From: an uncultured Christensenellaceae bacterium
GTDB taxonomy: Bacteria; Bacillota; Clostridia; Christensenellales; CAG-1252
DNA length: 33,473 bases
Assembly: GCA_964441295.1 (NCBI GenBank)
Contig: CAYTUT010000002.1
Span: 1 to 33,473 of the forward strand
Reading direction: 5' to 3'
In this document: positions 1 to 29,736 of the stretch, piece after piece
How the letters are laid out: every line of letters starts with the position of its first letter
Numbering within the stretch: position 1 is the stretch's first letter
Position numbers and translations under genes: made by a program
Notes under the pieces: model-generated
What the model was told of the DNA's origin: nothing
The model's database searches: none
Seen by the model: the letters and a program-made list of their open reading frames with translations, nothing else

Positions 1-807
1 AACTCTCTTCATGGCATGTTCTTTGACGAATTGATAGCCCTTGCGGTGCGCGCTCTCCCATTCTCCTGTAAACACCGCCGATATGCGGTTGTCAAGATTC
101 ATTGCGACATTGACAATAAAGTCGGGATTGACAATCGAGGCGCCCTCTCGGATATTCTCCCATACCGGATTGCCCGATGTAATGCCCCAGGTTGCCTGCG
201 GTGAGATGATTCGGGCGGCATTGTGGTTGCGCATTATGCTTTGAATATCGCTTAGCCCCGGCAATATCGCCTTTGGCCCACCGCTAAAACCGGCGAAAAA
301 ATGCGGCTCAATAAAACCCGTGCATATCTTCAGGTCGGCGTTGAGAAACTCGCTGTTGATGTACAGCTTGTTGCCGTCTGCAAAGTCGCCGGCGTATCCC
401 ATTGTGGAATAGTCAAAGCTGTTATGCTGGACGCACCTGTAGTTTTGCGCAACCTCCGCGGTAAGCATAGCGCACAACTCAGCCTCTGTCTGCGGGCGGT
501 GGCTTCCCGTCATATTCACAAGGACGATATTCTCCTTCCTTATGCCTAACGCAAGCAATTCATTAAGCAGTACGGGTATAATGATGTGATTGGGCGTTGC
601 GCGCGTTATGTCGGTATGCGCTATCGCAACGGTCTTTCTGCCCAAAGTTAGTTCCCTCAGTCCGGCTCCAAAATCCGGAGCGTACAACTTTTGCCTGATT
701 ACCTCCCGGGGATTATCTGCAGCTATCTGCGCTGAAGGAAAAAAAACATCCGCCCTGTCTATGTCTATGTTTATTCCGCTTTTTCCGTAATCCAGCTGTA
801 TGTTCAT
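1..807 (-). CDS. LarA-family nickel-pincer-nucleotide-dependent 2-hydroxyacid racemase/epimerase, N-terminal 269 aa. The 3' end lies beyond the window start.
   Basis: It is missing from the ORF track because it is open at the window edge. My reverse-strand translation from ATG at 807..805 reads MNIQLDYGKSGINIDID...HTDITRATPNHIIIPVLLNEL...VNMTGSHRPQTEAEL...CTGFIEPHFFAGFSGGPKAILPG...IMRNHNA.... These match LarA signature blocks: the GxHRP His, the GFIExHFFAGFSGGxK Lys and the NH His. The frame stays open through position 1. Its ATG overlaps the upstream TGA (ATGA at 804-807). Confidence 0.85.
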   Translation of the reverse strand, partial: MNIQLDYGKSGINIDIDRADVFFPSAQIAADNPREVIRQKLYAPDFGAGLRELTLGRKTVAIAHTDITRATPNHIIIPVLLNELLALGIRKENIVLVNMTGSHRPQTEAELCAMLTAEVAQNYRCVQHNSFDYSTMGYAGDFADGNKLYINSEFLNADLKICTGFIEPHFFAGFSGGPKAILPGLSDIQSIMRNHNAARIISPQATWGITSGNPVWENIREGASIVNPDFIVNVAMNLDNRISAVFTGEWESAHRKGYQFVKEHAMKRV

Positions 808-1715
808 TTTTTCACATTCCCGTCGAAAAACTCGACCATATCCTTGATGACTATATCCTTATCAATATCCGATGTCAGCTCGTGACGCGCATCCTCGTAA
901 AGCTTCATTCTTACATTAAGGCCAAGCTGATTATACGCATCATATAGTTTTTGCACTTTCCTGCCCATTGCGCCCAAGGGATCCCTCGAACCACTTATCA
1001 TAAAGATAGGCAATGCTTTGCTTATCCTTGCCAATGCGCTCTTTTTGTAAGCTTTTTGCAACCCCCTCATCATGGAGTAGTAAAACCCATGGGTCATAAT
1101 GAAGTTGCAATAGGGGTCATCGTTGTACAGCGCCACCTTTTCCATATCGCGGTTAAGCCACGCATTATCAATCCCGTCTTGCAAAAAGGGCTTGTTATTG
1201 GCGACAAAAGTCATCTTAAACAGCATATGGTTGGGCTGGTCCATTCTGTATTTTGCCCTTTGCAGCGCAGTAAGCAGCTTGCCGAAAACCAGCTTTGCCC
1301 CGCCCATATGCGCCGAACCGGAGAGAATCAATCCGTCCAAAAGCTCAGCTTGACGCGTGATATATGACTGCGCCAAAAAAGAACCGTAGCTGTGAGCGAA
1401 AAGCTGAACAGGCAAGTTGAATCTGGACTTGAGCATTTTGGTTATCTCGATTTCATCAAGTACGTTTTCCTCGAAGTTGTTTTTGCCTGCTTTACCCAGA
1501 TTATCCATCCCTGCAGTGTCGCCGTGCGGACGATGGTCATCTCCGTAGGCGATATAGCCGTATCTGTTGAGCTCCTGTCCCAGCTCCATATATCTTTTCA
1601 TGTGAGAGGTCATTCCGTGAAGTATCTGCACAACCCCTTTCGGGTTAACAACATCATCCCACAAGAAGCAGGCAAGCTCCTTGCCGTCATAGCTTATAAA
1701 AGTCTCTTTTTTCAT
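804..1715 (-). CDS. Alpha/beta-fold hydrolase (lysophospholipase/monoacylglycerol-lipase-like serine esterase)
   Basis: 303-aa ORF. It has HGMTSH (an oxyanion HG-type block), a nucleophile elbow AHSYGS (GxSxG-like), and a late D...H (SGSRDP...ARHEL). The RBS AGGGGA lies upstream of the ATG at 1715. Confidence 0.8.
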   Translation of the reverse strand: MKKETFISYDGKELACFLWDDVVNPKGVVQILHGMTSHMKRYMELGQELNRYGYIAYGDDHRPHGDTAGMDNLGKAGKNNFEENVLDEIEITKMLKSRFNLPVQLFAHSYGSFLAQSYITRQAELLDGLILSGSAHMGGAKLVFGKLLTALQRAKYRMDQPNHMLFKMTFVANNKPFLQDGIDNAWLNRDMEKVALYNDDPYCNFIMTHGFYYSMMRGLQKAYKKSALARISKALPIFMISGSRDPLGAMGRKVQKLYDAYNQLGLNVRMKLYEDARHELTSDIDKDIVIKDMVEFFDGNVKK

Positions 1716-1920: not shown

Positions 1921-1951
1921 AATAAAAAAGCGGTGGATAATGCTCCCCCGC
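1921..1951 (-). terminator. Rho-independent terminator ending the long uxaC...TIM-barrel operon
   Basis: The minus strand reads GCGGGGG-agcattat-CCACCGC followed by TTTTTTATT. That is a 7-bp GC-rich stem with one mismatch. It lies about 65 nt downstream of the stop at 2015. Confidence 0.6.
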
Positions 1952-2014
1952 CCTTTGCTGTGTCAAATATATACGGCTATAGCCAAAAGACCAAGTATAA
2001 TGGATTATTGCACA

Positions 2015-2773
2015 TTAATAAATCTTTCTTAGATAGTTCAAGCTGTACTCAATGCTTTTGAAAGGATTAGGGGACAAGTCAAGCTCTACGACCGCGTTCT
2101 TTATGCCTGCCTGCTCCGAACAATGCAAAATATTCCCGAAGTTCAGCGCGCCCTTTCCGATAGCGCGAAACACCGGCACTCCCAGTATTTTTTTATAATC
2201 CTTGAGATGCAGGGTGCTGACACGGCCTTTGAGGCGCCTGATATACGCCTCGGGGTCATAGCCGCCGACCTTAATCCAAAAGGTGTCGGGTATAAAATGC
2301 ACGTCGCCAAGCGTGTTTTCAATCATATAATCGTATATAATCTCACCGTCTGCGCGCTTGAACTCAAAGTGATGGTTATGATATGCAATATTCATACCGA
2401 ATTTTTTGAGCTTCTCGGCAGTGGTGTTCAATATCTCTACAAAACGGCGTATGTCGTCAAGCTTCCCGGTTCGGAAAACTTTCGGCATCATGCCTATACC
2501 GATGCTCCGACAGTTAAACTCGGCATGCTCCTCTGCGAGACGCTCCAAGTCATCGACAATGCGCTTGTATGGAGAGTGAGTAATACATATTGGCAGTCTG
2601 TTATCGTCGGAAATCCTTTTGAGCTCGGCACTTGAGAGCGCCGCGCCCCCCGATACCTGCACTACCTCGGCAGAAAGCGCTTTAACTCTAGCAAAGACTG
2701 CCGCCATGCTTGCCGCATCCTTAATATACTTCCTCAGCGAGTACAGCTGAACGCCTATTTTGATTTTTTCCAT
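2015..2773 (-). CDS. Sugar phosphate isomerase/epimerase family protein (xylose-isomerase-like TIM barrel, AP_endonuc_2 fold)
   Basis: The protein begins MEKIKIGVQLYSLRKY... and contains IAYHNHHFEF and TLHLKDY blocks typical of this fold. I moved the start from 2824 to the ATG at 2773, which has a GGGGAGAG RBS. The longer ORF would abut the upstream stop. Confidence 0.8.
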   Translation of the reverse strand: MEKIKIGVQLYSLRKYIKDAASMAAVFARVKALSAEVVQVSGGAALSSAELKRISDDNRLPICITHSPYKRIVDDLERLAEEHAEFNCRSIGIGMMPKVFRTGKLDDIRRFVEILNTTAEKLKKFGMNIAYHNHHFEFKRADGEIIYDYMIENTLGDVHFIPDTFWIKVGGYDPEAYIRRLKGRVSTLHLKDYKKILGVPVFRAIGKGALNFGNILHCSEQAGIKNAVVELDLSPNPFKSIEYSLNYLRKIY

Positions 2774-2823
2774 ATTCACTCTCCCCACCCGCTCAAAGCG
2801 CTTATTGCCGCTAAGCGCGGACA

Positions 2824-4290
2824 TTAATCTCTGTTCTCAAAATAGCTTCTCAAGACTGCTTCCTTTTCTATCTGCAGTTCTGCCAGCTTCTTCTTGTTAA
2901 GCGGATATAGGAACCACAATACAAAAAACATCAGCAAAAACATAACCGCGGGAATCAGCACCGCAAGATCATACATCTTGTAGAGCGTGGAAGCCGCCTG
3001 AACGGCGCTATCTTTATCATAGGCTATCCAAATCAGCGCGGCATTAGCTAGTATCGCGGCGATTGTGTGCCCCAGCTTTCTTGTAAAGCTGTATACAGCG
3101 TAGCTCGTCGCATCCTCTCTCGTGCCTATCTTTACCTCGTTGTAGTCAATAGCGTCAGTGACAAGCGCCCAGACCTGCAGAAGGAAAAGCGCCGTGCCGA
3201 GCCCAGAAAAGAAGCACAGCGCAAGGAAGATATAGGGATTGGATGTCTTGAGGAAAAATAGCACAAAATTGGCAATTGCGGCAAGCAGCATACCCAATGC
3301 GCAGATCTCCTTTTTGCCAGCTGCTGCAATAATCTTCTGAGCTACAAAAATTAATATGACCATGGGCGCATATGTCGTCAGTGTCACCAAAAAATACAAG
3401 CCCGGCGAATTGAAATAGTCTTTGAACAGATATAAATAGTAGCTCTGCATAAACATTTGACCTGCTATCATCAGCATTGACGCTATGCAAATTACTAAAA
3501 ACGGGCGGCTTTTGAAAAGACTTTTTACGATTCTTGCAGTATCGCCCTTTTGCCTTACTGCAGGAGGCGCGGTCTGCACTCTTTCCCTTGTCCATCTGTA
3601 CGAGAAATAAAAAGCGACAATGGACAACACCGCCATAATCGAGACACCGATAATTAATCGCGGATAGTTGACCTCGCTTGCCTCCTTACCGTCCACAACG
3701 ACCTTGACAATGCAAAAGCTCGAAAGGAATATTGCGGGCAGACCGCCTATTCCAGAGCCGATAGCGCGAAAAACGGATAGGGAGGAGCGCTCCTTTTCGT
3801 TAGTTGTTATTACCGATGCAAGCGAGCCGTAGGGGATATTAACAGCAGTATAGAGCATACCGTACACTATATATGTGACCGTAGCAAAAATAAAGTATCC
3901 CGTCACGCTAAGCCCGGGAATCTTAATAAACATAAGCACCGTGCTCAAAGCGAGCGGATAGGATATCCACACCAGCCATGGTCTGTATCTGCCGTTTTTG
4001 CCCACTTTTTTGCTGTCTACTACCCTGCCCCAAATCGTGTCGTTGACCGCGTCCCAAAGCCGCGCCACGGTAAAGAGTATCATGAGCCAGCCCGGGTCAA
4101 TTTTGAGCACATCGGTATAATAGGTCTGCAATATCGATGTGACCAGCCCGAAAGACATCAAGCAGGCAAAATCGCCCAACGCGTAGCCGATTTTGTCCAC
4201 AAACTTTATGCCGCTTGTCCTCTCTATGTACGAATCGGAGCTCTCCTTGGCGCTAATTGCTCCCGTCTCCTGTTTTATGCCGTCATTCAT
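2824..4290 (-). CDS. MFS transporter of the glycoside-pentoside-hexuronide (GPH):cation symporter family (MelB/UidB/YicJ-like)
   Basis: About 12 hydrophobic segments. GPH blocks are present: IGYALGDFA, YYTDVL, ARLWDAVNDTIWGRVVD, GRYRPW, VNIPYGSLA. I placed the start at the ATG at 4290 (MNDGIKQ...), because the 515-aa ORF would overlap the upstream gene by 74 nt. Confidence 0.85.
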   Translation of the reverse strand: MNDGIKQETGAISAKESSDSYIERTSGIKFVDKIGYALGDFACLMSFGLVTSILQTYYTDVLKIDPGWLMILFTVARLWDAVNDTIWGRVVDSKKVGKNGRYRPWLVWISYPLALSTVLMFIKIPGLSVTGYFIFATVTYIVYGMLYTAVNIPYGSLASVITTNEKERSSLSVFRAIGSGIGGLPAIFLSSFCIVKVVVDGKEASEVNYPRLIIGVSIMAVLSIVAFYFSYRWTRERVQTAPPAVRQKGDTARIVKSLFKSRPFLVICIASMLMIAGQMFMQSYYLYLFKDYFNSPGLYFLVTLTTYAPMVILIFVAQKIIAAAGKKEICALGMLLAAIANFVLFFLKTSNPYIFLALCFFSGLGTALFLLQVWALVTDAIDYNEVKIGTREDATSYAVYSFTRKLGHTIAAILANAALIWIAYDKDSAVQAASTLYKMYDLAVLIPAVMFLLMFFVLWFLYPLNKKKLAELQIEKEAVLRSYFENRD

Positions 4291-4297
4291 TGCGGTT

Positions 4298-5452
4298 TTA
4301 GTGCTTGACGCCGCTTTTGGCTTCCAGCTTTTTGCACTTTTCCAGCTCGGATATAAACAGCTCTTCGTCAAGCGGTATGCTTACTTCTCTTCTGAGCCAG
4401 CCCGAAAGATGTATAGCGTTGGAAAATGTCAGCCCGATTATGCCCTCACTGCCGGGGGCTATAAAGTTGTTGTCACGCCTTAGCAGCACATCGGTAAAGT
4501 TTTTGATAACGCCCATATGCTGAATCGGATACTTAAAAGGCCTAAGATACCTTTCGAGCCCGCGGTATGTGTACTTGGTCGTTGCGGGCTTGCCCATAAA
4601 GACCTCGTTAACCCTACTGAATTCGGGCTCAGGCACTGTATTTTTGGTAAAGGTCAGCTTGCCTCTTTCAATTACTATCTTGCCGCCGTCGCCTGTAATC
4701 TCGAGACGGTTGGTGCCGGGAGCGTCATGCGTCGAAGTAATAAAAACTCCCGTCGCGCCGTTGGCAAACTTGCAATAGGCGGTAACATCGTTCTCTACAT
4801 TTATCTCTCTGCAACGGGTGCTGATTGTACTCATTACCGATACGGGCAGTCCTGCAAGCCAGGTGAACAAGTCCAGTTGATGCGGACACTGATTAATCAA
4901 TACTCCGCCGCCCTCGCCCCACCAGGTGCCTCTCCAGCCGCCCTGCGCGTAATAGGCTCTCGGACGGTACCAGTTGGTGATTATCCACACAATACGCTTC
5001 AACTCGCCGAGCGCGCCTCCCGCTATCAGCTCCTTCGCTTTAATGTACAGAGGGTTTGTGCGCTGATTGAACATCATGCCAAATAGCTGATTGGGATATT
5101 TTTTTGCCTCCTCGTTAAGCTCTCTAACCTGCTTTGTGTACACACCCGCGGGCTTGTCGCACAAGACATGCAATCCCTTTCGGAATGCGGCAATCGATAT
5201 TTCGGGATGAAAATAATGAGGTGTGACTACCATAACGGCATCAATTAGCCCGCTTTCGAACATTTTGTTGTAGTCGTCAAATACCTCTACGCCGGCAAGC
5301 TTTGCCTTCGCCCAGGCTCTTCTCTCTTCGGATATGTCGCACACGGCGGCAAGCTCCGCTCCCTTTATAAACCGTCTTAATTTGGTAAAAAGCGTGGTGT
5401 AATACGCGCCTTGCTTGCCAATACCCACTATCCCGTATCTTACTTTATCCAT
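4298..5452 (-). CDS. Gfo/Idh/MocA-family NAD(P)-dependent oxidoreductase (paralog A)
   Basis: N-terminal Rossmann motif YGIVGIGKQG, an active-site region CDKP (EKP-type), and a C-terminal block WYRPRAYYAQGGWRGTWWGEGGGVLINQCPHQLDLFTWL. The RBS GGAGGG is present. Confidence 0.85.
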   Translation of the reverse strand: MDKVRYGIVGIGKQGAYYTTLFTKLRRFIKGAELAAVCDISEERRAWAKAKLAGVEVFDDYNKMFESGLIDAVMVVTPHYFHPEISIAAFRKGLHVLCDKPAGVYTKQVRELNEEAKKYPNQLFGMMFNQRTNPLYIKAKELIAGGALGELKRIVWIITNWYRPRAYYAQGGWRGTWWGEGGGVLINQCPHQLDLFTWLAGLPVSVMSTISTRCREINVENDVTAYCKFANGATGVFITSTHDAPGTNRLEITGDGGKIVIERGKLTFTKNTVPEPEFSRVNEVFMGKPATTKYTYRGLERYLRPFKYPIQHMGVIKNFTDVLLRRDNNFIAPGSEGIIGLTFSNAIHLSGWLRREVSIPLDEELFISELEKCKKLEAKSGVKH

Positions 5453-5463
5453 ACGCCCTCCGG

Positions 5464-6384
5464 TTACTTTATTTCGCTGATCAATTTTTGCAGATTCTTA
5501 TACTGCCAAACAAAAACCTCTTTGCCCGATACTTTCTTATAGAAAGGTACACCCATGTCCTTATCAATCTTCCTGAATGCTCTAAAAAAGCCATTGAGTA
5601 TAAGCGGCATAAAAGGCACAAAATATACCGGAAGCTTCATTATCGAATACTTCAGGGTGTGCGGCTCCATGGTCAAAAAGCCGTTATAGCCGCTTTGCTT
5701 GATTTCTCTAAGAATAGTACTGTACCCGCCAAGCCCTGTACCTACGGGCACCTCCACCTTGTACTTTGAACAATCCTTGATATGATAATACACCGTGTAT
5801 CCTTTGAGCATATCAAATGCCTTGAGCGGCTCGATATCGCACTGCACATAATTGGATGCGTCGAAGCACAGCACAAAATCAGGATTATCGATATCCTTGT
5901 AAAGCCTGATTACCCTTTCTGGCACATCTCCGTACACCTTCTTTTCGTTCTCATGCATTAGCTTTACACCGCTGTTTTCAGCAATTTTTAAGAATTCGCG
6001 AAGCTTTGCTACAACCTTATCATGGCACGAATCAGGATTCTGCTTACCATAGAAAAAGGAAAAAATACGGATATACCCGCAATTCATGGCCTGCGCTATC
6101 TTGATTAGCTCGCCGAGCTGTTTTTTCTGCCGCTCGAATCCTTCCTCGTCATCTATGCCTACCTTACCGATTGGAGAGCCGATGGAAGAAAACTTGATAC
6201 CGTTATCGTCAAGGACGGGCTTTATGTCGCGGACAAACTCATCGGCAGTGTAATTGGCGATATTCTTGCCGTTGACGGTGCGCGGACACATATAACTTTC
6301 GCCGAATTCTTTAATCGCTTCTATCTGCTTACTCAAATCACCGCTGATTTCATCATAAAAACCCGAAATAATAAACTTGCTCAT
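5464..6384 (-). CDS. Sugar phosphate isomerase/epimerase family protein (xylose-isomerase-like TIM barrel)
   Basis: Begins MSKFIISGFYDEISGDLSKQIE... and contains YIRIFSF, KLMHENEK, YYHIKD and LTMEPH metal-ligand-type blocks. The RBS is GAAGAGGTG. Confidence 0.8.
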   Translation of the reverse strand: MSKFIISGFYDEISGDLSKQIEAIKEFGESYMCPRTVNGKNIANYTADEFVRDIKPVLDDNGIKFSSIGSPIGKVGIDDEEGFERQKKQLGELIKIAQAMNCGYIRIFSFFYGKQNPDSCHDKVVAKLREFLKIAENSGVKLMHENEKKVYGDVPERVIRLYKDIDNPDFVLCFDASNYVQCDIEPLKAFDMLKGYTVYYHIKDCSKYKVEVPVGTGLGGYSTILREIKQSGYNGFLTMEPHTLKYSIMKLPVYFVPFMPLILNGFFRAFRKIDKDMGVPFYKKVSGKEVFVWQYKNLQKLISEIK

Positions 6385-6396
6385 AATGCACCTCTT

Positions 6397-7518
6397 CTAT
6401 ATATTCTTTTCTTGTTCTTGCTTTTCAGCAAGCTTTATGTCGTATTCCCTGTCGTCAATAGGCAGTGTTATCTCCCTCTTGCTCCATTCGGAGAGATAAA
6501 TTGCGTTAATCAACTCAACCGCCGCCTGTCCCTCGTCCGCTCTTGCAAGCATGTCGCCTTTGCCTGACACCGCGGCTGCAAATGCCCTTACCGAGCGCAG
6601 CTGCTGACCCAGCGCAATGTCGCGGATACCGCGGATTATGCCGTATGAATACACCTTCTTGACGCTCGGCGCAAAGCCGTAGCCGAACTTTGTTGTCGCG
6701 TTAACCTCTTTTTCGCTCTTATGCGACCATACACGCATATTAAAAGGCGTGATAAAGATTTTGCCCTTGTCACAAGCTATCTCCAGTCTGTTGGTACCCT
6801 TCAGCTCGTGTGAAGAAGCCGAAAACATACAATTAAAACCCTTGTATCTGAGTATTGCGGAGACATCGTTCTCCACAGTTATGCGGCGATTGACCGTCTT
6901 GCACTCAGCATACACCGACTCGGGCATACCGATAAGCCATTGCAGAATGTCGAGCTGATGCACGCACTGGTTAAGCAGACAACCTCCGCCCTCGCCTGTA
7001 TAACTTGCGCGCCATCCGCCCTCGTTGTAGTATGCTTGAGAGCGGTACCAGTCAGTGATGACAAAATCCGCTCTTTGAATAGCGCCCAGCGCCCCGCTGT
7101 CCAGCAGACTCTTTGCTTTGCAATACAATCTGTTGGACCTTTGGTTGTATGATACCCCTACCTTAACCTTTGGAAACTGTTTTGCGGTATCCACAAGCTT
7201 TTTGCATGCTGATACGGTAACTGCAAGCGGCTTTTCTATAAGGGTATTGACACCCTTTTTTATGCAATACTCGGCAATTACGGTATGTGAAAAATGCTCG
7301 GTCACTATAATTACGCCGTCCAAAACTTCTTTATCAAGCATCTCCTTGTAATCTGTGTAGCGGTTGGCTTTTTTTGCATATGTTTTGCACCACTCGAGGG
7401 CTTCCGCGCTTATGTCGCATACCGCGGTAAGCCTTACTCCGCGGGCAAAGCCGCGCGCTAGATTAAAAGCGTGGCGCTTACCCATTCTGCCTATTCCAAT
7501 TATCGCAAAGTTAAGCAT
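6397..7518 (-). CDS. Gfo/Idh/MocA-family NAD(P)-dependent oxidoreductase (paralog B)
   Basis: Contains FAIIGIGRMGKRH, IEKP and WYRSQAYYNEGGWRASYTGEGGGCLLNQCVHQLDILQWL. It aligns clearly with the 4298..5452 product. Confidence 0.85.
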   Translation of the reverse strand: MLNFAIIGIGRMGKRHAFNLARGFARGVRLTAVCDISAEALEWCKTYAKKANRYTDYKEMLDKEVLDGVIIVTEHFSHTVIAEYCIKKGVNTLIEKPLAVTVSACKKLVDTAKQFPKVKVGVSYNQRSNRLYCKAKSLLDSGALGAIQRADFVITDWYRSQAYYNEGGWRASYTGEGGGCLLNQCVHQLDILQWLIGMPESVYAECKTVNRRITVENDVSAILRYKGFNCMFSASSHELKGTNRLEIACDKGKIFITPFNMRVWSHKSEKEVNATTKFGYGFAPSVKKVYSYGIIRGIRDIALGQQLRSVRAFAAAVSGKGDMLARADEGQAAVELINAIYLSEWSKREITLPIDDREYDIKLAEKQEQEKNI

Positions 7519-7577
7519 AAATCGACCTCATATTTTTGTCGTGTACAATTTAGCATAACAGCTATTCGCTGATACCG

Positions 7578-8420
7578 CTATACTCCGCTGTACGCGCTGA
7601 ATCCGCCATCTATCGGCAAGACCACGCCAGTAATAAAGCCCGCTTCGCTCTCCGAGAGCAGCAGCTTGACGGCACCGAGTAATTCGTCTATTTCGCCAAA
7701 ACGCCCCATAGGAGTAGCCGCAAGTATTTTGCCCGTGCGAGGAGTGGGCGTACCGTCCTCGTTATAGAGCAGCGCGCGGTTTTGATTAGTCACAAAAAAG
7801 CCGGGGGCTATTGCATTAACCCGTATCCCCGATTTAGCAAAATGCACGGCGAGCCACTCGGTAAAGTTGCTAACCGCCGCCTTTGCGCCGCTGTACGCGG
7901 GGATTTTTGTGAGCGGGGCAAATGCGTTCATGGATGAAATATTGAGTATTGAGCAGCCTTTTTTGCCCAGCATATCTTTTGCAAAAACCTGCGTGGGTAA
8001 AAATGTGCCCAAAAAATTAAGGTCAAACACGAATCTCACGCCGTTTTCGTCAAGGGCGAAAAAATCCTTGTCATAGCTCTTTCCCGGCTCGCAATACTCG
8101 TTATCGGTAGTTGCCCGTGGATTGTTGCCGCCCGCGCCGTTGATTAATATGTCCGCGGTGCCTATGTCTTGCAGTATTGCCTCGCGCGCTTGCAGTAAGG
8201 ACTGTTTTTGCAGTACATTCGCCGCATATGCCTTGGCAATGCCGCCGTTACCAGTTATTGTGTCCGCCATAGCCTGCGCGGCGGCTTGATTAAGGTCAAG
8301 CAAAGCGACCTTCGCGCCCAGCAAGGCTAATGCCTCCGCCACTCTGCCGCAGATAATACCGCCTGCGCCTGTTATTACTGCTACTTTGCCCTCAACACCG
8401 CAATCAAAACCTCTGTTCAT
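7578..8420 (-). CDS. uxuB: SDR-family oxidoreductase, UxuB-type D-mannonate/fructuronate oxidoreductase
   Basis: Contains GKVAVITGAGGIICG (TGxxxGxG), NGAGGN and YSGAKAAV (YxxxK), with a C-terminal PIDGGFSAYSGV typical of SDR-type UxuB. It is adjacent to uxuA. I moved the start to the ATG at 8420, which has a GAGGAGAG RBS. Confidence 0.7.
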   Translation of the reverse strand: MNRGFDCGVEGKVAVITGAGGIICGRVAEALALLGAKVALLDLNQAAAQAMADTITGNGGIAKAYAANVLQKQSLLQAREAILQDIGTADILINGAGGNNPRATTDNEYCEPGKSYDKDFFALDENGVRFVFDLNFLGTFLPTQVFAKDMLGKKGCSILNISSMNAFAPLTKIPAYSGAKAAVSNFTEWLAVHFAKSGIRVNAIAPGFFVTNQNRALLYNEDGTPTPRTGKILAATPMGRFGEIDELLGAVKLLLSESEAGFITGVVLPIDGGFSAYSGV

Positions 8421-8480
8421 AATTCTCTCCTCAATCCCGCTCGGCATCGCGCCGACGCATAACCCCAATGCAATAATGCT

Positions 8481-9527
8481 TTACTTCTTCAATACTGAGC
8501 TGAGCGCCGCCCAAGCGCCGTTGATGTAAGTTGCGCCCAAAGCGCGGTCAAAAAGACCGTAGCCCGGCTTGCCCGCTTCGCCCCATATCATTCTACCATG
8601 GTCCGGACGGATATATCCAGTGAAGTTTTCCTCTACCAGCGCGCGAATTATGCCGATAACATCCAATGAGCCGTATTTTTCATCGTGCGCCGTCTCCTCA
8701 AAGCCGCCCTCAACCAGCTTGATATTGCGTATGTGCATAAAGTGGATTCTGCCCGCTTTTGCATACTTTTTTACCAGCTTGACCATATCGTTATCCGTGC
8801 TTACCCCCAAAGAACCCGTGCAAAAGGTCAAGCCGTTGTTGGGACTGCTGTTAAGCGCCAAAAATCTGTCAATATTTTCTTCATTGGTAATAATCCGCGG
8901 CAGACCAAAGATATCCCAAGGCGGGTCATCAGGGTGTATTGCCATATTGACGCCGTACTCCTCTGCAACGGGTATAACACTATCCAAAAAATATTTGACA
9001 TTGCCGAAAAGCTTATCCTTGTCAATCTTCGCGTACTGCTCGAATAATCTTGCAAGCTCATCCTTCTTGTAGCTGCTGTCCCAGCCGGGCAAAGACAGCT
9101 CGCCGGTCAAAGGATTCATCTTCTCCAACTGCTCCTTGTAATATACCAATGAAGTAGAGCCGTCTTTTGCGACCTTGTCAAGCTGCGTGCGCGTCCAGTC
9201 AAACACGGGCATAAAGTTGTAGCAGATGCACTTGACGCCAGCGGCTCCAAGACGCCTGATATTTTCTCTATACGCATCGATATACCTATCTCTTGACGGC
9301 AGCCCCAGCTTAATATCCTCGTGTACGGGGACGCTCTCAATGACATCCATAACAAGCCCGTTACTCTCAACCTGCTCTTTAAGCCTTTTGATACTTTGCT
9401 CCGGCCATACCTCTCCGACAGGCACACTGTAGACCGCGGTCACAATACTGTGCATGCTGGGTATCTGGCTAATGTATCTTAGGCTTATCGGATCGCTCTC
9501 ACCGTACCAGCGAAATGCCAATTTCAT
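8481..9527 (-). CDS. uxuA: Mannonate dehydratase
   Basis: Begins MKLAFRWYGESDPISL.... It has an FCTGSLG block, is 348 aa long, and overlaps the uxaC stop by ATGA. Confidence 0.9.
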   Translation of the reverse strand: MKLAFRWYGESDPISLRYISQIPSMHSIVTAVYSVPVGEVWPEQSIKRLKEQVESNGLVMDVIESVPVHEDIKLGLPSRDRYIDAYRENIRRLGAAGVKCICYNFMPVFDWTRTQLDKVAKDGSTSLVYYKEQLEKMNPLTGELSLPGWDSSYKKDELARLFEQYAKIDKDKLFGNVKYFLDSVIPVAEEYGVNMAIHPDDPPWDIFGLPRIITNEENIDRFLALNSSPNNGLTFCTGSLGVSTDNDMVKLVKKYAKAGRIHFMHIRNIKLVEGGFEETAHDEKYGSLDVIGIIRALVEENFTGYIRPDHGRMIWGEAGKPGYGLFDRALGATYINGAWAALSSVLKK

Positions 9528-10927
9528 ATATCTGCCCCCTTCAAAAAATAGTTGACTGCGTTATCATAACATATATCCTTGACCAGCTTTTCAAGCATAT
9601 CGGTATCATCAGGATACTCGCCTTTCTCCACCCATTCACCGATTATATCGCAAAGTATTCTGCGAAAATAATCGTGGCGCGCATACGAGGTAAAACTTCT
9701 CGAATCAGTGAGCATGCCGTTGAAGAGCCCCAGACCACCCGTTGAGGCAAGTATCCTAAGCTGCTCCCTTATCCCGTCACGGTGATCCAAGAACCACCAG
9801 GCCGCGCCAAGCTGCATTTTGCCCTTTACCTCTCCCGCAAAATCTCCGGCAAGCGTGGACAAAGGATAATATGAGTTGGGATTGAGAGTATATACAACAG
9901 TCTTAGGGAGTCCGCCCTCGCGCTCGACGCTGTCAAACAGCCGCGCAGCAGCCGTAATATCTATCGCGTTGCCCACGCTGTCAATTCCGGTATCCGCTCC
10001 CAGCGCGCTAAACCTTCTGCTGTTGACATTGCGTATCACGCCGGTATGCAGCTGCATAACCATACCCTTAGCGGCGAACATGGATGCCAATGCCTTAATA
10101 AGCGCGAATTTGTACTCCTCGATGTCGCTCGCTAAGCTTTTTTCTCCCTTCAACGCCGCCTTCAGCGCTCTGTCTGCGGCCGAAGTATCCCCGTGCCCTT
10201 TCGGGAAGTCCTCGATGGCAATATCCGCCGCGACCGCTCCATTAATGCAAAAATAGTCCAATCTTTTGCCCAACGCGCCAAGCAAGCTATCAAAATCCGA
10301 TATGCCGGCATTCGCGCTATCCGCCAGCTTAAAAATATATGCCGCAAAGCCTTCTTTCTCAATATTTACCGCCGCATCCGGCCTGAAGCAAGGCAAAACT
10401 TTGAACGGCAACGGCTCTTTTTGCAACAATAAATGATATTCCAGACTGTCCGACGGGTCGTCTGTGGTAACAACAGCCTTGACCGCCGAGCGCGCAATGA
10501 GTTGCTGCGCGGAAAAGCTCCCGTCCGCCATTATCTTGAGGGTCTTCGACCATATTTTCTCCGCATTATCAGAGCATATCGGCAACGCGATGTCAAAATA
10601 ACGCTTCAGCTCAAGATGCGCCCAATGATACACGGGATTGCCTATGAAGGCGGGTAACGCCTCAGCAAATCTCAAAAATTTTTCTTTAGGCGCGGCGCTT
10701 CCGGTGATATATTGTTCGTCAATACCGAATGCCCGCATAATACGCCACTTGTAATGGTCACCTTCAAGCCACAGCTCGGTTAGGTTGTAAAACACTTTGT
10801 CCTTATATATTTCAAACGGACTCAAGTGGCAATGATAATCAAAAATCGGCATGGAAGCCGCGGTCTTGTATAACTTGCGCGCAGTCAAATTATTCAGCAA
10901 AAAACTATCCGCCATAAATGGAGTCAT
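9524..10927 (-). CDS. uxaC: Glucuronate (uronate) isomerase
   Basis: Begins MTPFMADSFLLNNLTARKLYK...PIFDYHCHL and contains DHYKWR, YHWAHLEL, QLHTG and WWFLDH blocks. The start is set at the ATG at 10927, which has a GAGGTG RBS. Confidence 0.9.
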   Translation of the reverse strand: MTPFMADSFLLNNLTARKLYKTAASMPIFDYHCHLSPFEIYKDKVFYNLTELWLEGDHYKWRIMRAFGIDEQYITGSAAPKEKFLRFAEALPAFIGNPVYHWAHLELKRYFDIALPICSDNAEKIWSKTLKIMADGSFSAQQLIARSAVKAVVTTDDPSDSLEYHLLLQKEPLPFKVLPCFRPDAAVNIEKEGFAAYIFKLADSANAGISDFDSLLGALGKRLDYFCINGAVAADIAIEDFPKGHGDTSAADRALKAALKGEKSLASDIEEYKFALIKALASMFAAKGMVMQLHTGVIRNVNSRRFSALGADTGIDSVGNAIDITAAARLFDSVEREGGLPKTVVYTLNPNSYYPLSTLAGDFAGEVKGKMQLGAAWWFLDHRDGIREQLRILASTGGLGLFNGMLTDSRSFTSYARHDYFRRILCDIIGEWVEKGEYPDDTDMLEKLVKDICYDNAVNYFLKGADI

Positions 10928-10971
10928 ATAGCACCTCATGATAAATTATATCATACATTTTTTTGTCAGTA

Positions 10972-11000
10972 TATATATATTATTGCTAAAAAACTTGTAA
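10972..11000 (-). promoter_or_regulatory. Candidate promoter of the uxaC operon
   Basis: The minus strand reads TTACAA (11000-10995), a 17-nt spacer, then TATATA (10977-10972). A second, closer TGaTATAAT lies at 10945-10953, so the real transcription start is uncertain. Confidence 0.4.
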
Positions 11001-11023
11001 AAATTGCTACGGCATGATACAAT
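10995..11023 (+). promoter_or_regulatory. Candidate promoter of the AraC-family regulator gene
   Basis: TTGTAA (10995-11000), a 17-nt spacer, then TACAAT (11018-11023), with an extended TG at 11015-11016. GGAG at 11061 and the ATG at 11069 follow. Confidence 0.5.
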
Positions 11024-11068
11024 CAATATAATATATTGCCCAAAACTGCAACAAAGACAAGGAGTGAT

Positions 11069-11932
11069 ATGAAAAATTCGCCCGCCCTTGCGCACTGGAA
11101 ATCCTCTCAACTAATGAACAACAACGACTACGAAATCGCTTTCTATAAGGACAAGGATTTTAAGAAGGTCAGTCTGCACAGCCACGATTTTTACGAGCTG
11201 TACTTTTTTATCAACGGCAATGCAAGCTATATTATCGAGGATTCGTATTACACCTTGCAATCGGGGGATATATTGCTGATATCTCCGAGAGATTTGCACC
11301 AGCTGGATATTAATGATGCCAAAGCCACTTATGAGCGCATCGTATTATGGCTCAATCCAAGATACCTCAAAGAGCTTAGCACGCCAAAAACCAATCTTGC
11401 CGAGTGCTTTGAGCTGAGTTATAAATGCAAAAACTACCTTATCAGAGATTATCCGCTATCCGAAACTATCAAAACTGATTTGGAAGAATTGTGCGCATAT
11501 AGCTCTTCCGGTGAATTCGGCGCCGATGTTGCTGCCGAAATCTTAATACGGAGAGTTCTCTTGAGGCTTGCGGTTCACGCTAGGTCCGCCGATTGCGGCA
11601 ATGGTCAGCGCAATCTGTCAGCCGTGTCAAAAACAATGAATTATATTTGCGAAAACATTGACGGTCAGCTCTCGCTCGACAATATCGCCGAAGCGATGTT
11701 TATAAGCAAATTCCATTTGTCACGCATTTTTAAGAAAGAGACAAATACGACGATACACCAGTATATACTCAAAAAAAGACTGATAATGTCAAAGCAGCTT
11801 ATCGAAAAGAAGCTGCCCATAACTGAAGTGTATCAAAAATGCGGCTTTGCCGATTACACGCATTTTTTCCGCGCGTTCAAGCACGAATATGGTATTACGC
11901 CCAAACAGTATCTTAATTTTACACGAAAATAA
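11069..11932 (+). CDS. AraC-family transcriptional regulator (N-terminal cupin sensor plus C-terminal dual HTH)
   Basis: The cupin-like N-terminus reads HSHDFYELYFFINGNASY...GDILLISPRDLH. The C-terminus reads LSLDNIAEAMFISKFHLSRIFKKETN...GFADYTHFFRAFKHEYGITPKQY. The track start at 11036 is a TTG; I prefer the ATG at 11069, which has a GGAG RBS. Confidence 0.9.
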   Translation: MKNSPALAHWKSSQLMNNNDYEIAFYKDKDFKKVSLHSHDFYELYFFINGNASYIIEDSYYTLQSGDILLISPRDLHQLDINDAKATYERIVLWLNPRYLKELSTPKTNLAECFELSYKCKNYLIRDYPLSETIKTDLEELCAYSSSGEFGADVAAEILIRRVLLRLAVHARSADCGNGQRNLSAVSKTMNYICENIDGQLSLDNIAEAMFISKFHLSRIFKKETNTTIHQYILKKRLIMSKQLIEKKLPITEVYQKCGFADYTHFFRAFKHEYGITPKQYLNFTRK

Positions 11933-13756: not shown

Positions 13757-14599
13757 CTAAAATAGACTTTTTTCAAATTTAAGACTGATGTCCATAGCGC
13801 GGACGGTATGCGTTAAGGCGCCTATGGATATCAGATTGACCCCGGTCTCAGCTACGGTAATTAAATCTTTATCACCCATGTTGCCCGATGCCTCGACAAT
13901 AGCTCTGCCGCCCACAATGGCAACAGCTTTTCTCATGTCTTCAATGCTCATATTGTCAAGCATGATAATATCTGCACCCGCACTAAGCGCCTCCTTGAGC
14001 ATATCGAAGTTCTCCACTTCAACCTCGATTTTTAATGTATGGGGCGCTGCTTGGCGTGCTTTTTCTACCGCTTGGGTTATGCCTCCTGCCGCTACAATAT
14101 GGTTGTCCTTAATAAGTACGCCGTCCGAAAGATTGTATCTGTGGTTGCTCCCGCCGCCTGTCTTGACCGCATATTTTTCCAATACTCTTAATCCGGGAGT
14201 GGTTTTGCGCGTGTCGCAGATACTAGCGGATGTTCCCCTCACCGCTTCCACGCAAAGACTTGTTTTGGAGGCAATACCGCTCAATCTCTGCAAAAAATTC
14301 AGCGCCACTCTCTCACCGGTCAGTATGGAGCGCGCGTTGCCGGATATTTCGGCAATGATATTACCTTTTGCAAGCGTAGCGCCGTCCGGATAATTACTGA
14401 TAAAGCTAACGCTATCGTCAATTATCTCGAATACGCGCCGCGCGACATCAATACCGCACAAAACACCCCGTTCTTTAGCAATAAACTTGCCGCTTATAAC
14501 GGCGCTCTCTTCCACAGTCGACATCGTAGTAATATCCCCGGTGCCCACATCCTCTTTAATCGCCTGTCTTATGATATCGTCAATAATAAGTTTTTTCAT
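13757..14599 (-). CDS. nadC: Nicotinate-nucleotide diphosphorylase (carboxylating), quinolinate phosphoribosyltransferase
   Basis: Contains IKEDVGTGDITT, ERVALNFLQRLSGIA, DTRKTTPGLR, HRYNLSD and IMLDNM blocks. Confidence 0.92.
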   Translation of the reverse strand: MKKLIIDDIIRQAIKEDVGTGDITTMSTVEESAVISGKFIAKERGVLCGIDVARRVFEIIDDSVSFISNYPDGATLAKGNIIAEISGNARSILTGERVALNFLQRLSGIASKTSLCVEAVRGTSASICDTRKTTPGLRVLEKYAVKTGGGSNHRYNLSDGVLIKDNHIVAAGGITQAVEKARQAAPHTLKIEVEVENFDMLKEALSAGADIIMLDNMSIEDMRKAVAIVGGRAIVEASGNMGDKDLITVAETGVNLISIGALTHTVRAMDISLKFEKSLF

Positions 14600-14610
14600 G
14601 TTTCACCTTC

Positions 14611-16140
14611 CTAATTTTCTCTGTAGTGAGCGCCAACGCTTTCCTTTCTTGCAAGAGAGGCTTGTAATATTTCCATTGCTACCGTTGCCATGTTGAGAGT
14701 CTCGTATTGCTTGTATCCCGTCAAAACCGAATCACTGAGCGCCGCAAAATATTCTGATACTTCCTGAAGCGCCTCTTGCATCTCTAGAGTATTGCGTACG
14801 ATTCCGCCTTTTTTGGTCATCGTGTCGCGTATTCTCGAACGGAATGTCTGGCAATCCAGCTGCCTCTCATTCTTGTCAGGCAAATCCAGTCTCCCGATAT
14901 GGGGCGCTAGAATATTATTGCCGTTGATGTATTCGGCGCACCTTTTGCCAAACACCAGACATTCAAGCAAAGAATTGCTTGCAAGGCGGTTGGCGCCGTG
15001 CACGCCCGTGCAGGCAGATTCGCCGCAAGCGTACAGATTGGCAATGCTTGTCAGACCGTTGACATCCGTCTTGACACCCCCCATAAAATAATGCTGTACA
15101 GGGAATACCGGGATCCAGTTGACGGCGATATCGATATCTCTCTTAAGGCAATTCTCGTATATTTGGGGAAATCTGTCCTTGAGTACCTCCCTTGGCTTGA
15201 AGGTTATGTCAAGATAGACGCAGGGCAAATCATTCTCGCGCATCTCCTTGACAATCGAGCGTGATACGATATCCCGCGGCGCAAGCTCTGCAAGCTCATG
15301 CGCCCTCAGCATAAAGCGTTCGCCCTTGCGGTTTCTCAAGACAGCACCATTGCCGCGCATTGCCTCGGATATCAAGAAAAAGCGCATATTATCATTAGGA
15401 TATATAAGCGCGGTCGGATGAAACTGTACAAATTCCATATCCTTAAGCGTTGCGCCCGCTCTTTTTGCCGCGGCAATGCCGTCTCCGGTAGAGCATATAG
15501 AATTGGTGCTGTTGCGGTATACGCGCCCGATGCCTCCGGACGCTATTACGGTATGCGCCGCCTCAATAAGAATATTCTTTTCCCCGCTCTTTGCAACAAC
15601 GCCTACCGCAGTATTATTCTCAGTAATAATATCGAGCATGTGCATGTTCTCTATTATCTTGATGTTATGCTTTAAGCGGCAGTTTTCTATCAGCGTTTTG
15701 GTAAGGTGATACCCTGTCGCATCGCCTCCGCAGTGAACAATACGGTTGCAGCTGTGCGCCGCTTCTTTGGTTATGCAAAGATTGTTGTCCGAATCCCTGT
15801 CGAAAGGCACCCCGAGCTTAATGAGGTTCTCGATATTATCAGGGCCTTCCTTGACCAAGACAGTCACGGCTTCGATATCGCACATGCCTGCCCCTGCAAT
15901 ACGCGTGTCATTGATATGTGACTCCCACGTATCTGTAGACAGTCTTATCGCCGCGATACCGCCCTGGGCAAAAATGGAATTGGATTCTTCCAAATCCAGC
16001 TTGCTGAGAATAATAACATTCAGCTTGCTGTCGATATTAAGCGCGGTATACAACCCCGCCGCGCCGGCGCCGACTATCACAACATCGGCCTTTATCGTCT
16101 CTTCTATCCGAAATCCCTTGTGTATCGCGTAACTTCTCAT
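14611..16140 (-). CDS. nadB: L-aspartate oxidase
   Basis: Contains a VVIVGAGAAGL FAD motif, AQGGIAA, HCGGDATG, FVQFHPT and CTGVHGANRLASNSLLE. It overlaps the nadA stop by 4 nt. Confidence 0.92.
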   Translation of the reverse strand: MRSYAIHKGFRIEETIKADVVIVGAGAAGLYTALNIDSKLNVIILSKLDLEESNSIFAQGGIAAIRLSTDTWESHINDTRIAGAGMCDIEAVTVLVKEGPDNIENLIKLGVPFDRDSDNNLCITKEAAHSCNRIVHCGGDATGYHLTKTLIENCRLKHNIKIIENMHMLDIITENNTAVGVVAKSGEKNILIEAAHTVIASGGIGRVYRNSTNSICSTGDGIAAAKRAGATLKDMEFVQFHPTALIYPNDNMRFFLISEAMRGNGAVLRNRKGERFMLRAHELAELAPRDIVSRSIVKEMRENDLPCVYLDITFKPREVLKDRFPQIYENCLKRDIDIAVNWIPVFPVQHYFMGGVKTDVNGLTSIANLYACGESACTGVHGANRLASNSLLECLVFGKRCAEYINGNNILAPHIGRLDLPDKNERQLDCQTFRSRIRDTMTKKGGIVRNTLEMQEALQEVSEYFAALSDSVLTGYKQYETLNMATVAMEILQASLARKESVGAHYREN

Positions 16141-20556: not shown

Positions 20557-20574
20557 AAATGTTGCACAACATTT
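20557..20574. promoter_or_regulatory. Perfect 18-bp palindrome, a candidate operator in the divergent DUF2804/DUF5054 intergenic region
   Basis: The sequence is AAATGTTG-CA-CAACATTT: 8-bp arms with no mismatches. It overlaps the likely -35 region (TTGCAC/TTGTCC) of the plus-strand gene. Confidence 0.5.
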
Positions 20575-20626
20575 GTCCAACTGTGATATTATTGTATTAA
20601 TATACGCTGAAAACAAGAGAGGCAAT

Positions 20627-22699: not shown

Positions 22700-22725
22700 C
22701 GCCATCATTAAGTTGCTAATAGCTA

Positions 22726-22755
22726 TTGACAACTGCTCTGCTTTACATTTATTAT
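22726..22755 (+). promoter_or_regulatory. Candidate promoter for the SGNH-lipoprotein pair
   Basis: TTGACA (22726-22731), an 18-nt spacer, then TATTAT (22750-22755). A GGGGAG RBS and the ATG at 22787 follow. Confidence 0.45.
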
Positions 22756-22786
22756 ATCTATAATAAGATTTTGGGGAGTCTAGTAT

Positions 22787-29500: not shown

Positions 29501-29736
29501 ATTTTCCCCCACAAAAGCAACATATTATTAGCTATTTTATCACATTAGCGATTGTACTTCGACATTATTAGGTATTCTTAATCATAATTCGCTATGGTAA
29601 GGCAGAACTAGCTATCAAAAACAATGTAGCTATGCCGCATTGGTCATTCAATGACGATTGCGGCTGTATCTTGGTGATGCAAAACAATATTAATGGCATT
29701 TTTGAGATGTTTCAAAGTATTATTCTATATTGTTGC

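Follow-up and report, generated by a model that had tools for sequence, protein, structure and literature searches.

Predicted function of the operon

The 33.5-kb window analyzed in this study (the whole stretch of 33,473 nucleotides, from an uncultured Christensenellaceae bacterium) contains an operon of eight genes next to a divergent gene for an AraC-family regulator (Table 1). This operon, putatively under AraC control, probably joins the uptake of glucuronides and their splitting without a hydrolase to the three reactions with which glucuronate catabolism begins. The proposal builds on the gene content, homologies, catalytic residues and gene linkage that we observed. The chemistry and the cleavage of alpha- and beta-glucuronides are known for homologs that are 31–43% identical to the encoded proteins, and would apply to the operon by analogy; its natural substrates would be glucuronides. 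Gene calls were based on a listing of open reading frames (ORFs) and on Pfam and NCBIfam scans of the window, which is the single contig of the source genome that was analyzed. The Pfam scan covered the main ORFs that do not overlap one another and reach 100 amino acids (aa) or more, and one ORF of 82 aa.

In the proposed pathway, a cation symporter of the glycoside-pentoside-hexuronide (GPH) family would import the glucuronide, and the Gfo/Idh/MocA-type dehydrogenase Gfo-A, with tightly bound NAD+, would oxidize C3 of the glucuronosyl ring. The metal-dependent TIM-barrel enzymes TIM-2 and/or TIM-1 would abstract the proton at C2 and drive the aglycone off C1, and the same enzymes would hydrate the ensuing 2-hydroxy-3-keto-glycal to 3-keto-glucuronate. 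Reduction of 3-keto-glucuronate to D-glucuronate would be carried out by the NADH form of Gfo-A and/or by the second dehydrogenase, Gfo-B. Cleavage of this kind would hence be redox-neutral, which fits a strict anaerobe. UxaC, a UxuB of the short-chain dehydrogenase/reductase (SDR) type, and UxuA would then convert glucuronate via fructuronate and mannonate to 2-keto-3-deoxygluconate, and KdgK and Eda would be supplied from elsewhere in the genome or, in several relatives, by the same operon. We infer a division of labor between TIM-1 and TIM-2, and likewise between Gfo-A and Gfo-B.

Table 1 Positions of the operon genes and of the neighboring control elements within the window.
Feature	Position	Strand	Basis
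Terminator-like hairpin and T-run	1921..1951	-	By eye: GCGGGGG-AGCATTAT-CCACCGC-TTTTTTATT
TIM-2, relative of P2B11-Iso2, AL1/BT1 and OGE	2015..2824	-	Iso2 BLAST and PDB matches
GPH (glycoside-pentoside-hexuronide) cation symporter	2824..4290	-	TIGR00792, 302 bits (cut-off 231)
Gfo-A, probable glucuronide 3-dehydrogenase (P2B11-Oxido1 counterpart)	4298..5452	-	PDB 8TDI match
TIM-1, P2B11-Iso1-like xylose-isomerase-fold metal enzyme	5464..6384	-	PF01261; Iso1 match
Gfo-B, second Oxido1-like Gfo/Idh/MocA oxidoreductase	6397..7518	-	BLAST to Oxido1, Oxido2 and Gfo-A
SDR-type uxuB, D-mannonate oxidoreductase (fructuronate to mannonate)	7578..8420	-	NF006132
uxuA, mannonate dehydratase (mannonate to 2-keto-3-deoxygluconate)	8481..9527	-	PF03786, E = 4e-144
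uxaC, glucuronate isomerase (glucuronate to fructuronate)	9524..10927	-	PF02614, E = 3e-177
AraC-uxaC control region	10928..11035	.	AGCAAT repeats and extended -10 element
AraC-family regulator	11036..11932	+	PF12833, PF00165, PF02311; cupin-type AraC_binding domain and two helix-turn-helix (HTH) motifs

Enzymes of the proposed cleavage module

The enzymes of reference are those of P2B11, a human-gut fosmid with a Collinsella-like source according to the supplement. Its genes Iso1-Oxido1-Oxido2-Iso2 jointly hydrolyze glucuronides of the alpha and the beta type, whereas glucosides are not cleaved (Nasseri et al., bioRxiv 10.1101/2024.03.25.586180, section 12). In this route, C3 is oxidized and the aglycone is lost by 1,2-elimination, after which hydration and reduction follow; Oxido1 and at least one 'isomerase' are needed, while Oxido2 is dispensable, and Mn2+ or Co2+ has a stimulating effect, whereas added NAD(P)(H) is without effect (bioRxiv 10.1101/2024.03.25.586180). 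The individual steps of Iso1 and Iso2 are not assigned in that paper, which reports 'no apparent nearby transporter/regulator' (bioRxiv 10.1101/2024.03.25.586180). The P2B11 protein sequences used in our comparisons were machine-read text from its supplement, and small errors in them are likely.

Gfo-A matched the P2B11 glucuronide-3-dehydrogenase (PDB 8TDI) over residues 1–380 of 384 with E = 1.7e-98, 333 bits and 43% identity (BLASTP), and its next best PDB match reached only 106 bits. The six active-site residues of Oxido1 (Asn147, Trp179, Arg181, Tyr185, Asn205 and His209; residue numbers of the paper equal the PDB chain index + 10) are all kept in Gfo-A, where they correspond to N129, W161, R163, Y167, N187 and H191, and in Gfo-B. 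An alignment of Gfo-A and Gfo-B with 8TDI and seven homologs shows no variation in these six columns. Gfo-B (373 aa) aligns along its entire length with Oxido1 at 34% identity (E = 5e-73), with 219 bits for the match to 8TDI; its similarity to P2B11-Oxido2 (335 aa) amounts to 29% identity across the N-terminal 231 residues only. We propose that Gfo-B acts as a second glycoside 3-dehydrogenase or as a 3-keto-glucuronate reductase. A preliminary description of the DNA, made from the sequence alone, had called the two dehydrogenases paralogs and quoted a shared block (NQR...WL.G.P). Their paralogy was upheld (36% identity, E = 1e-84), and the block is real and harbors the catalytic residues.

The same dehydrogenase family, together with xylose-isomerase-like TIM barrels, also forms the systems for C-glycosides (DgpA/DgpBC) and levoglucosan (LgdA/LgdB). 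It is extremely improbable that the operon encodes such a system for neutral glucosides. DgpA structures scored 53–64 bits against the Gfo proteins of the window (7XR9 reached 64 bits against Gfo-A), and 6A3F, which we take to be a levoglucosan dehydrogenase and which carries the PDB name 'Putative dehydrogenase', scored 59 bits against Gfo-A. The NCBIfam model for levoglucosan dehydrogenase yielded 62–67 bits at a cut-off of 650. No DgpB/C or LgdB chain was among the PDB matches of TIM-1 and TIM-2 at E ≤ 0.01, no gene for a DgpB-like small subunit was identified in the operon, and the context is one of uronate catabolism. Membership in the Dgp, Lgd or Alistipes/Bacteroides (AL/BT) glucoside systems was rejected on these low scores and on the missing DgpB/C and DUF1080 partners.

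TIM-1 matched P2B11-Iso1 with 41% identity in a stretch of 250 aa (E = 6e-57), and the motifs HENEK, HIKD and EPH are common to both. Its AlphaFold model has a pLDDT of 95. Foldseek searches with this model retrieved only generic xylose-isomerase-like barrels (TM 0.65–0.69, 10–17% identity), of which ketose 3-epimerases and UlaE were nearest, and gave no functional resolution beyond the Iso1 sequence match; the Iso1 family is therefore one without a solved structure. TIM-2 aligned with P2B11-Iso2 over 198 aa at 31% identity (E = 2e-24), and its PDB matches were 8TCT (BT1), 8TCD and 8TCS (AL1), and 8BVK (Agrobacterium OGE), with E-values of about 1e-17 to 1e-18. The HNH, DxxW and HxKD motifs, in which the metal and substrate ligands of BT1 reside, are kept in TIM-2. 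BLAST detected no relatedness between TIM-1 and TIM-2. From these similarities, TIM-1 is proposed to be a 3-keto-glucuronide lyase and/or glycal hydratase, and TIM-2 a 3-keto-glycoside 1,2-lyase (beta-eliminase). By sequence, all four middle proteins of the operon match the experimentally characterized P2B11 set.

The structural neighbors of TIM-1 could also point to an epimerization of free uronates via 3-keto intermediates, similar to YcjS/YcjR, by which an imported uronate would be funneled to glucuronate or fructuronate. The weak NCBIfam matches to fructoselysine and L-ribulose-5-phosphate 3-epimerases agree with such a role, as does the lack of an operon gene that handles an aglycone. We nevertheless regard it as improbable, as the structural matches are fold-generic (TM ~0.65–0.69, 10–17% identity), and the sequence relatives Iso1, Iso2, AL1, BT1 and OGE all take part in glycoside cleavage. 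Moreover, free hexuronates normally enter cells via ExuT-type, not GPH-type, carriers.

The preliminary description had offered two readings of the locus, an oxidative release of glucuronate that is independent of beta-glucuronidase (GUS) and a clostridial inositol-to-hexuronate shunt. Homology strongly supports the former (Gfo-A with 8TDI, TIM-1 with Iso1, and TIM-2 with Iso2, AL1/BT1 and OGE). The latter, which would start from myo- or scyllo-inositol and resemble the Thermotoga IolG/IolM/IolN/IolO route, draws on the best named NCBIfam models, IolG for both Gfo proteins and IolE for TIM-2, and on the uxaC/uxu genes in the same operon. We rejected this shunt as highly improbable, because the scores lie far under the cut-offs (97–109 bits vs 355 for TIGR04380, IolG; 38.5 vs 290 for TIGR04379, IolE) and the similarity to solved inositol dehydrogenases is weak (75–101 bits vs 333 for the glucuronide 3-dehydrogenase). 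No homolog of an IolN-type inosose hydrolase or of an inositol transporter was identified, and the carrier is of GPH type.

Glucuronate catabolism and putative transport and operon control

The genes of the Ashwell (isomerase) pathway for UxaC, UxuB and UxuA are all present, with scores above the curated NCBIfam cut-offs: 538.6 bits vs 387 on the equivalog model NF002794 for uxaC, 414.6 vs 281 on NF006132 for the SDR-type uxuB, and 386.2 vs 199.55 on TIGR00695 for uxuA. The likely start of uxaC is the ATG at 10927 with AGGTG just before it, and that of uxuB is the ATG at 8420 with a GAGGAG ribosome-binding site, which yields a protein of 280 aa, a length as in its relatives. That uxaC, uxuA and uxuB share an operon with the cleavage module, at gaps of no more than 60 nt, fits glucuronate as the product and supports the proposed function. 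KdgK and Eda must be encoded elsewhere in the source genome; both genes are found inside the homologous operon of seven related loci (L002, L003, L013 and L081-L084).

The carrier gene probably starts at the ATG at 4290, 7 nt past the stop codon of Gfo-A. The best named models for its product are the glucuronide transporter PRK09848 and YagG, and we regard the protein as a putative glucuronide importer.

All eight genes lie in the same direction on the minus strand in the order uxaC, uxuA, SDR-type uxuB, Gfo-B, TIM-1, Gfo-A, GPH symporter and TIM-2. This order, as given in the preliminary description, was confirmed by the ORF listing and the Pfam and NCBIfam scans. The tight packing noted there also stood. 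The gaps, computed with the most likely start codons, are 60, 59, 12, 11 and 7 nt, and the ATGA overlap at the uxaC/uxuA junction is accompanied by a second, previously unmentioned overlap of one base (TAATG) at the GPH/TIM-2 junction.

Both boundary elements of the earlier description, the divergent AraC gene at one end and the terminator at the other, were confirmed as well. The AraC ORF begins at a TTG, and the real start may be a few codons further downstream. The AraC-uxaC control region contains, on the minus strand, a pair of AGCAAT repeats with a distance of 21 nt between them (10982-10987 and 11003-11008) and, in front of uxaC, an extended -10 element, TGATATAAT, at 10945-10953. An alignment with the related loci L085 and L087 shows that both the repeats and the TGnTATAAT box are kept, and they are partly kept in L081. 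The repeats may serve as the AraC operator, and the extended -10 element is a candidate promoter of the operon. The divergent AraC gene keeps its place in L085, L087, L081, L002 and other loci, and control of the operon by its product appears plausible. The terminator-like hairpin has an 8-nt loop and is followed by T6, and it was not reported by a consensus terminator scan because of one mismatch.

Conservation of the operon in relatives

Relatives of Gfo-A were collected by scanning one genome per species. At least 585 were found, and the best 80 (47–84% identity) were examined. They stem mostly from metagenome-assembled genomes (MAGs) of Christensenellales and Oscillospirales from animal and human guts, and in addition from Paenibacillus and Cohnella. 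In 57 of the 80 loci, the gene immediately upstream of the Gfo-A homolog encodes a TIM-1 homolog; a second Gfo gene occurs in 44 and a TIM-2 homolog in 34. The preliminary description had asked whether the core always travels with uxaC/uxuAB and a GPH transporter. The linkage to catabolic genes is seen in roughly half of the loci: uxaC, uxuA or uxuB is located no more than 10 kb away and on the same strand in 38 of the 80 loci (33 of the 61 loci that have at least 5 kb of upstream sequence). A GPH gene is present in 19 of the 80.

In two loci (L003 and L013), the order UxaC-UxuA-UxuB-Eda-KdgK-GfoB-TIM1-GfoA-GPH-TIM2 reproduces the arrangement of the window with the two missing catabolic genes added, and these operons span the pathway from import to cleavage of 2-keto-3-deoxy-6-phosphogluconate. 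A third locus (L002) has the same order without GfoB. BLAST with known queries revealed no hydrolase in these three loci, in which not every ORF was scanned. A carboxylesterase of the COesterase family follows directly after TIM-2 in all three and in L006 (L013:10895-12130).

The closest relatives of Gfo-A are from Christensenellaceae MAGs and reach 84% identity. Three loci with 82–84% identity (L001, L085 and L087) share the UxaC-UxuA-UxuB-GfoB-TIM1-GfoA core, and their flanking synteny is kept, with nadBC, HTH and AraC genes on one side and an alpha/beta hydrolase gene downstream; a GPH gene is missing from all three, and L087 also lacks TIM-2. No glycoside hydrolase (GH) gene was found in the operons of these three loci. 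At its end, the operon differs from these relatives by a cassette that is swapped or an indel (window 1952-4297 vs L085:10161-12473 and L087:10171-12878). Between Gfo-A and the alpha/beta hydrolase gene, the window has GPH and TIM-2, while the 82–84% relatives carry an ECF-transporter S component and a PfkB kinase on the opposite strand, in addition to TIM-2 in L085 and an Abhydrolase_3 gene in L087. The alpha/beta hydrolase itself (Hydrolase_4; window 804-1715, minus strand) is located past the terminator and is conserved in L001 (80% identity), L085 and L087. The recurrent esterases beside the module may hint at glucuronides in esterified or acyl form.

The locus closest to P2B11 is L057, which shares 58% identity with Oxido1 and is without uxu genes. 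Its Iso1-like and Oxido1-like parts form one ORF of 690 aa with both Pfam domains (L057:9098-11170), followed up to position 14930 by Oxido2-like and Iso2-like genes and, directly after Iso2, by a GPH/MFS_2 transporter gene. Unless it is an assembly error, this fusion supports a functional coupling of the two enzymes.

The module with and without hydrolase genes

No glycoside hydrolase or GH2 domain was detected in the window by the Pfam scan, and a tblastn search of it with the GH2 protein of a related lineage (L081) was empty. The absence of glycoside hydrolases claimed in the preliminary description thus holds within the window, but not as a property of the family. In a lineage with 77% identity (L081-L084), which is abundant, with 99 index blocks and contigs that reach 687 kb, the AraC gene is followed by UxaC-UxuA-UxuB-Eda-KdgK-GH2-Gfo-Gfo-TIM2. 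The GH2 protein of 751 aa is encoded between kdgK and the Gfo pair (L081-L084:6528-8783), and its best NCBIfam match is 'beta-glucuronidase LacZ4' with 565 bits, under the cut-off of 950. To judge from this gene order, hydrolytic and oxidative cleavage genes would be co-transcribed in this lineage.

In 13 other loci (L007-L012, L017, L018, L023, L025, L027, L028 and L031), a gene for a 644-aa (alpha/alpha)6 hydrolase-like protein follows right after Gfo-A, and most of these loci also have a third Gfo gene and a gene for a PHP-domain protein. The 644-aa protein shows weak matches to GDE_C, GH94 and trehalase, and a different GPH transporter gene has also been added (L008:11187-14770). In L008 (4545-7238) and others of this group, the genes between uxuB and Gfo-B encode the third protein of the Gfo/Idh/MocA family (425 aa), a protein of 150 aa without Pfam domain and the PHP-domain protein. 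Five further loci (L015, L016, L019, L021 and L022) carry a gene of the GH13 alpha-amylase family directly downstream of the Gfo-A homolog; the GH13 protein has 604 aa (L016:5237-7051), and the operon of these loci reads UxuA-UxuB-TIM1-GfoA. As GH genes are found beside the module in some relatives and in none of the operons of others, the module appears to be either combined with hydrolases or standing alone. Judged from these gene neighborhoods, the lack of a hydrolase is a property of the lineage of the window and not of the family.

The most serious question is whether the operon suffices alone or complements a glucuronidase encoded outside the contig. With the same chemistry, the module could have an accessory role beside a glucuronidase or another hydrolase, and act only on alpha-linked, thio-linked or hindered conjugates. 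The GH2 gene within the operon of the 77%-identical lineage, the 13 loci with the (alpha/alpha)6 gene and the five with GH13 are in line with this explanation, as is the fact that our analysis spans one contig of the source genome. We still consider it somewhat unlikely, since a GH gene is absent from the operon of the window and from those of the closest relatives (L001, L085 and L087), and the BLAST searches with known queries in L002, L003 and L013 likewise gave no hydrolase, while L003 and L013 encode everything from the transporter to Eda. Furthermore, the P2B11 enzymes alone cleave ordinary O-glucuronides of both anomers.

Several observations weigh against the function proposed here for the operon. 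At 31–43% identity to the characterized enzymes, substrate specificity is insecure. The position of the catalytic Glu of BT1 is occupied by Asp in TIM-2 (E-L-D), an E-x-D motif that P2B11-Iso2 also carries. Gfo-B is closer to Oxido1 than to Oxido2 (34% vs 29%) and is not an Oxido2 ortholog. The GPH protein reached 224 bits on the PRK09848 glucuronide-transporter equivalog, at a cut-off of 528, and its gene is absent from the nearest relatives with 82–84% identity; the transporter is therefore not an obligate part of the unit. Consistent with the preliminary description, kdgK and eda (kdgA) were not found in the window, neither by the Pfam scan nor by tblastn with Eda and KdgK of a relative. 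Finally, GH2, GH13 or (alpha/alpha)6 hydrolase-like genes occur in or beside the module in several related lineages, so that its usual role may be to support a hydrolase and not to take its place.

Going beyond glucuronide cleavage as such, we tentatively propose, as one joint scenario that is possible rather than probable, that the operon is a self-sufficient hydrolase-free system with which some gut Christensenellales live on glucuronate from imported glucuronides without any beta-glucuronidase. Its scope would include drug, hormone, bile-pigment and dietary glucuronides as well as alpha-linked and thio-linked conjugates that GUS cannot cleave. The operon would then consist of two sub-modules, Gfo-B with TIM-1 and Gfo-A with TIM-2, each devoted to one anomer or substrate class.

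Novelty and significance

When gut bacteria strip off glucuronic acid, drugs, hormones and toxins become active again. This deconjugation is currently credited almost wholly to GH2 beta-glucuronidases, and these enzymes are the subject of drug-targeting efforts. The window and its relatives reveal organisms and operons in which GUS-independent deconjugation could be examined. If the self-sufficient scenario were true, it would be the first physiological role of the 3-keto pathway on glucuronides, and it would open a route of conjugate reactivation beyond the reach of GUS inhibitors.

The enzyme set described in 2024 came from a fosmid without physiological context, which the locus analyzed here and its relatives supply. 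The wiring of the operon with a putative glucuronide-type importer and catabolic genes in widespread gut anaerobes argues for a real nutritional route. What is new is this operon context with a GPH transporter, uxaC-uxuA-uxuB and an AraC regulator, while the enzyme set and its mechanism have been known since 2024; the operon extends a system that was already known and does not stand for a new mechanism. The paper of Nasseri et al. has reportedly appeared in its journal version in Nature in 2024. In the literature beyond this paper and reviews, we located no follow-up on the glucuronide 3-dehydrogenase or on 3-keto-glucuronide operons, and no later paper that places P2B11-type enzymes inside a uxaC/uxu operon with a transporter. 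The claim of the preliminary description that neither of its readings had been described as a unit was therefore overstated, because the enzymes and their mechanism had been published in 2024 (10.1101/2024.03.25.586180), but it stands for the operon context, which is not described there.

Other genes in the window

The remaining genes of the window are unrelated to the operon and comprise nadABC, a methyltransferase gene, DUF2804, DUF5054, PAS-GGDEF-HD, PilZ glycosyltransferase, radical-SAM and ArsP/ArsR genes. The nadA-nadB-nadC operon for de novo NAD synthesis occupies 13757-17036 (minus strand), and in the closest relatives its nadB-nadC end keeps its position relative to the AraC/uxaC locus. 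On the plus strand (20573-23788), genes for the DUF5054 protein (708 aa), a GDSL-like lipase/acylhydrolase of 333 aa and a protein of 244 aa without Pfam domain are grouped and may form a carbohydrate-active cluster, and DUF2804 (19441-20469) is divergent from this group. The DUF5054 protein (20573-22699) was considered as a hidden hydrolase, being the sole candidate carbohydrate-active protein, but was not counted as part of the system because its gene is on the opposite strand and separated from the operon by 9.6 kb and the nadABC genes. At 24747-29512, the gene for a PAS-PAS-PAS-GGDEF-HD(HD_5) protein (946 aa, plus strand) converges on that for a GT2 cellulose-synthase-like protein with a C-terminal PilZ domain (646 aa, minus strand), and the two ORFs overlap by 16 nt. 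This pair looks like an exopolysaccharide module controlled by cyclic di-GMP.

Comparison with known systems

The operon is similar to the P2B11 system in that it encodes an Oxido1-like dehydrogenase (43% identity, identical active-site set), Iso1-like (41%) and Iso2-like (31%) TIM barrels and a second Gfo/Idh/MocA oxidoreductase, and in that a DUF1080 protein is missing. Both derive from Gram-positive, gut-associated organisms, and the same stepwise mechanism is expected. In contrast to the order Iso1, Oxido1, Oxido2, Iso2 of P2B11, the module of the window is arranged as Gfo-B, TIM-1, Gfo-A, GPH, TIM-2. Its second oxidoreductase is a paralog of the Oxido1 type instead of an Oxido2 ortholog, and the module shares its operon with the GPH symporter and uxaC-uxuA-uxuB and is accompanied by the divergent AraC gene.

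With the 3-keto-glucoside pathway of the AL/BT systems of Alistipes and Bacteroides (BT2156-BT2160) and the 3-keto-glycoside route with OGE of Agrobacterium (PMC10628242), the operon would have in common a Gfo/Idh/MocA 3-dehydrogenase with bound NAD(H) and a metal-dependent TIM-barrel 1,2-lyase, to which TIM-2 aligns with its ligand motifs kept. AL1, BT1 and OGE are demonstrated lyases (bioRxiv 10.1101/2024.03.25.586180; PMC10628242). The window differs from the AL/BT systems by the lack of a DUF1080 lyase/hydratase for 3-keto-alpha-glucosides among its scanned ORFs and by the low scores of its Gfo proteins on BT_2158_fam (46–57 bits, cut-off 750) and BT_2159_fam (33–34 bits, cut-off 650). Its specificity, as suggested by P2B11 and by the gene context, would be for sugars with a 6-carboxylate and not for glucosides.

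Compared with the gus/uid system (UidA of GH2 and the GPH carrier UidB), the window is without GH2 or any other hydrolase, and cleavage is proposed to be oxidative and eliminative. A UxuB of SDR type and the location of kdgK and eda outside the window further set it apart from the combination of gus/uid with the Ashwell pathway. Nevertheless, it shares with this combination a carrier of the GPH family, for which a glucuronide transporter is the best named match at a score below the cut-off, and UxaC, UxuB and UxuA with scores above their cut-offs. Like gus/uid, the operon would follow the strategy of importing the conjugate, freeing glucuronate and catabolizing it.

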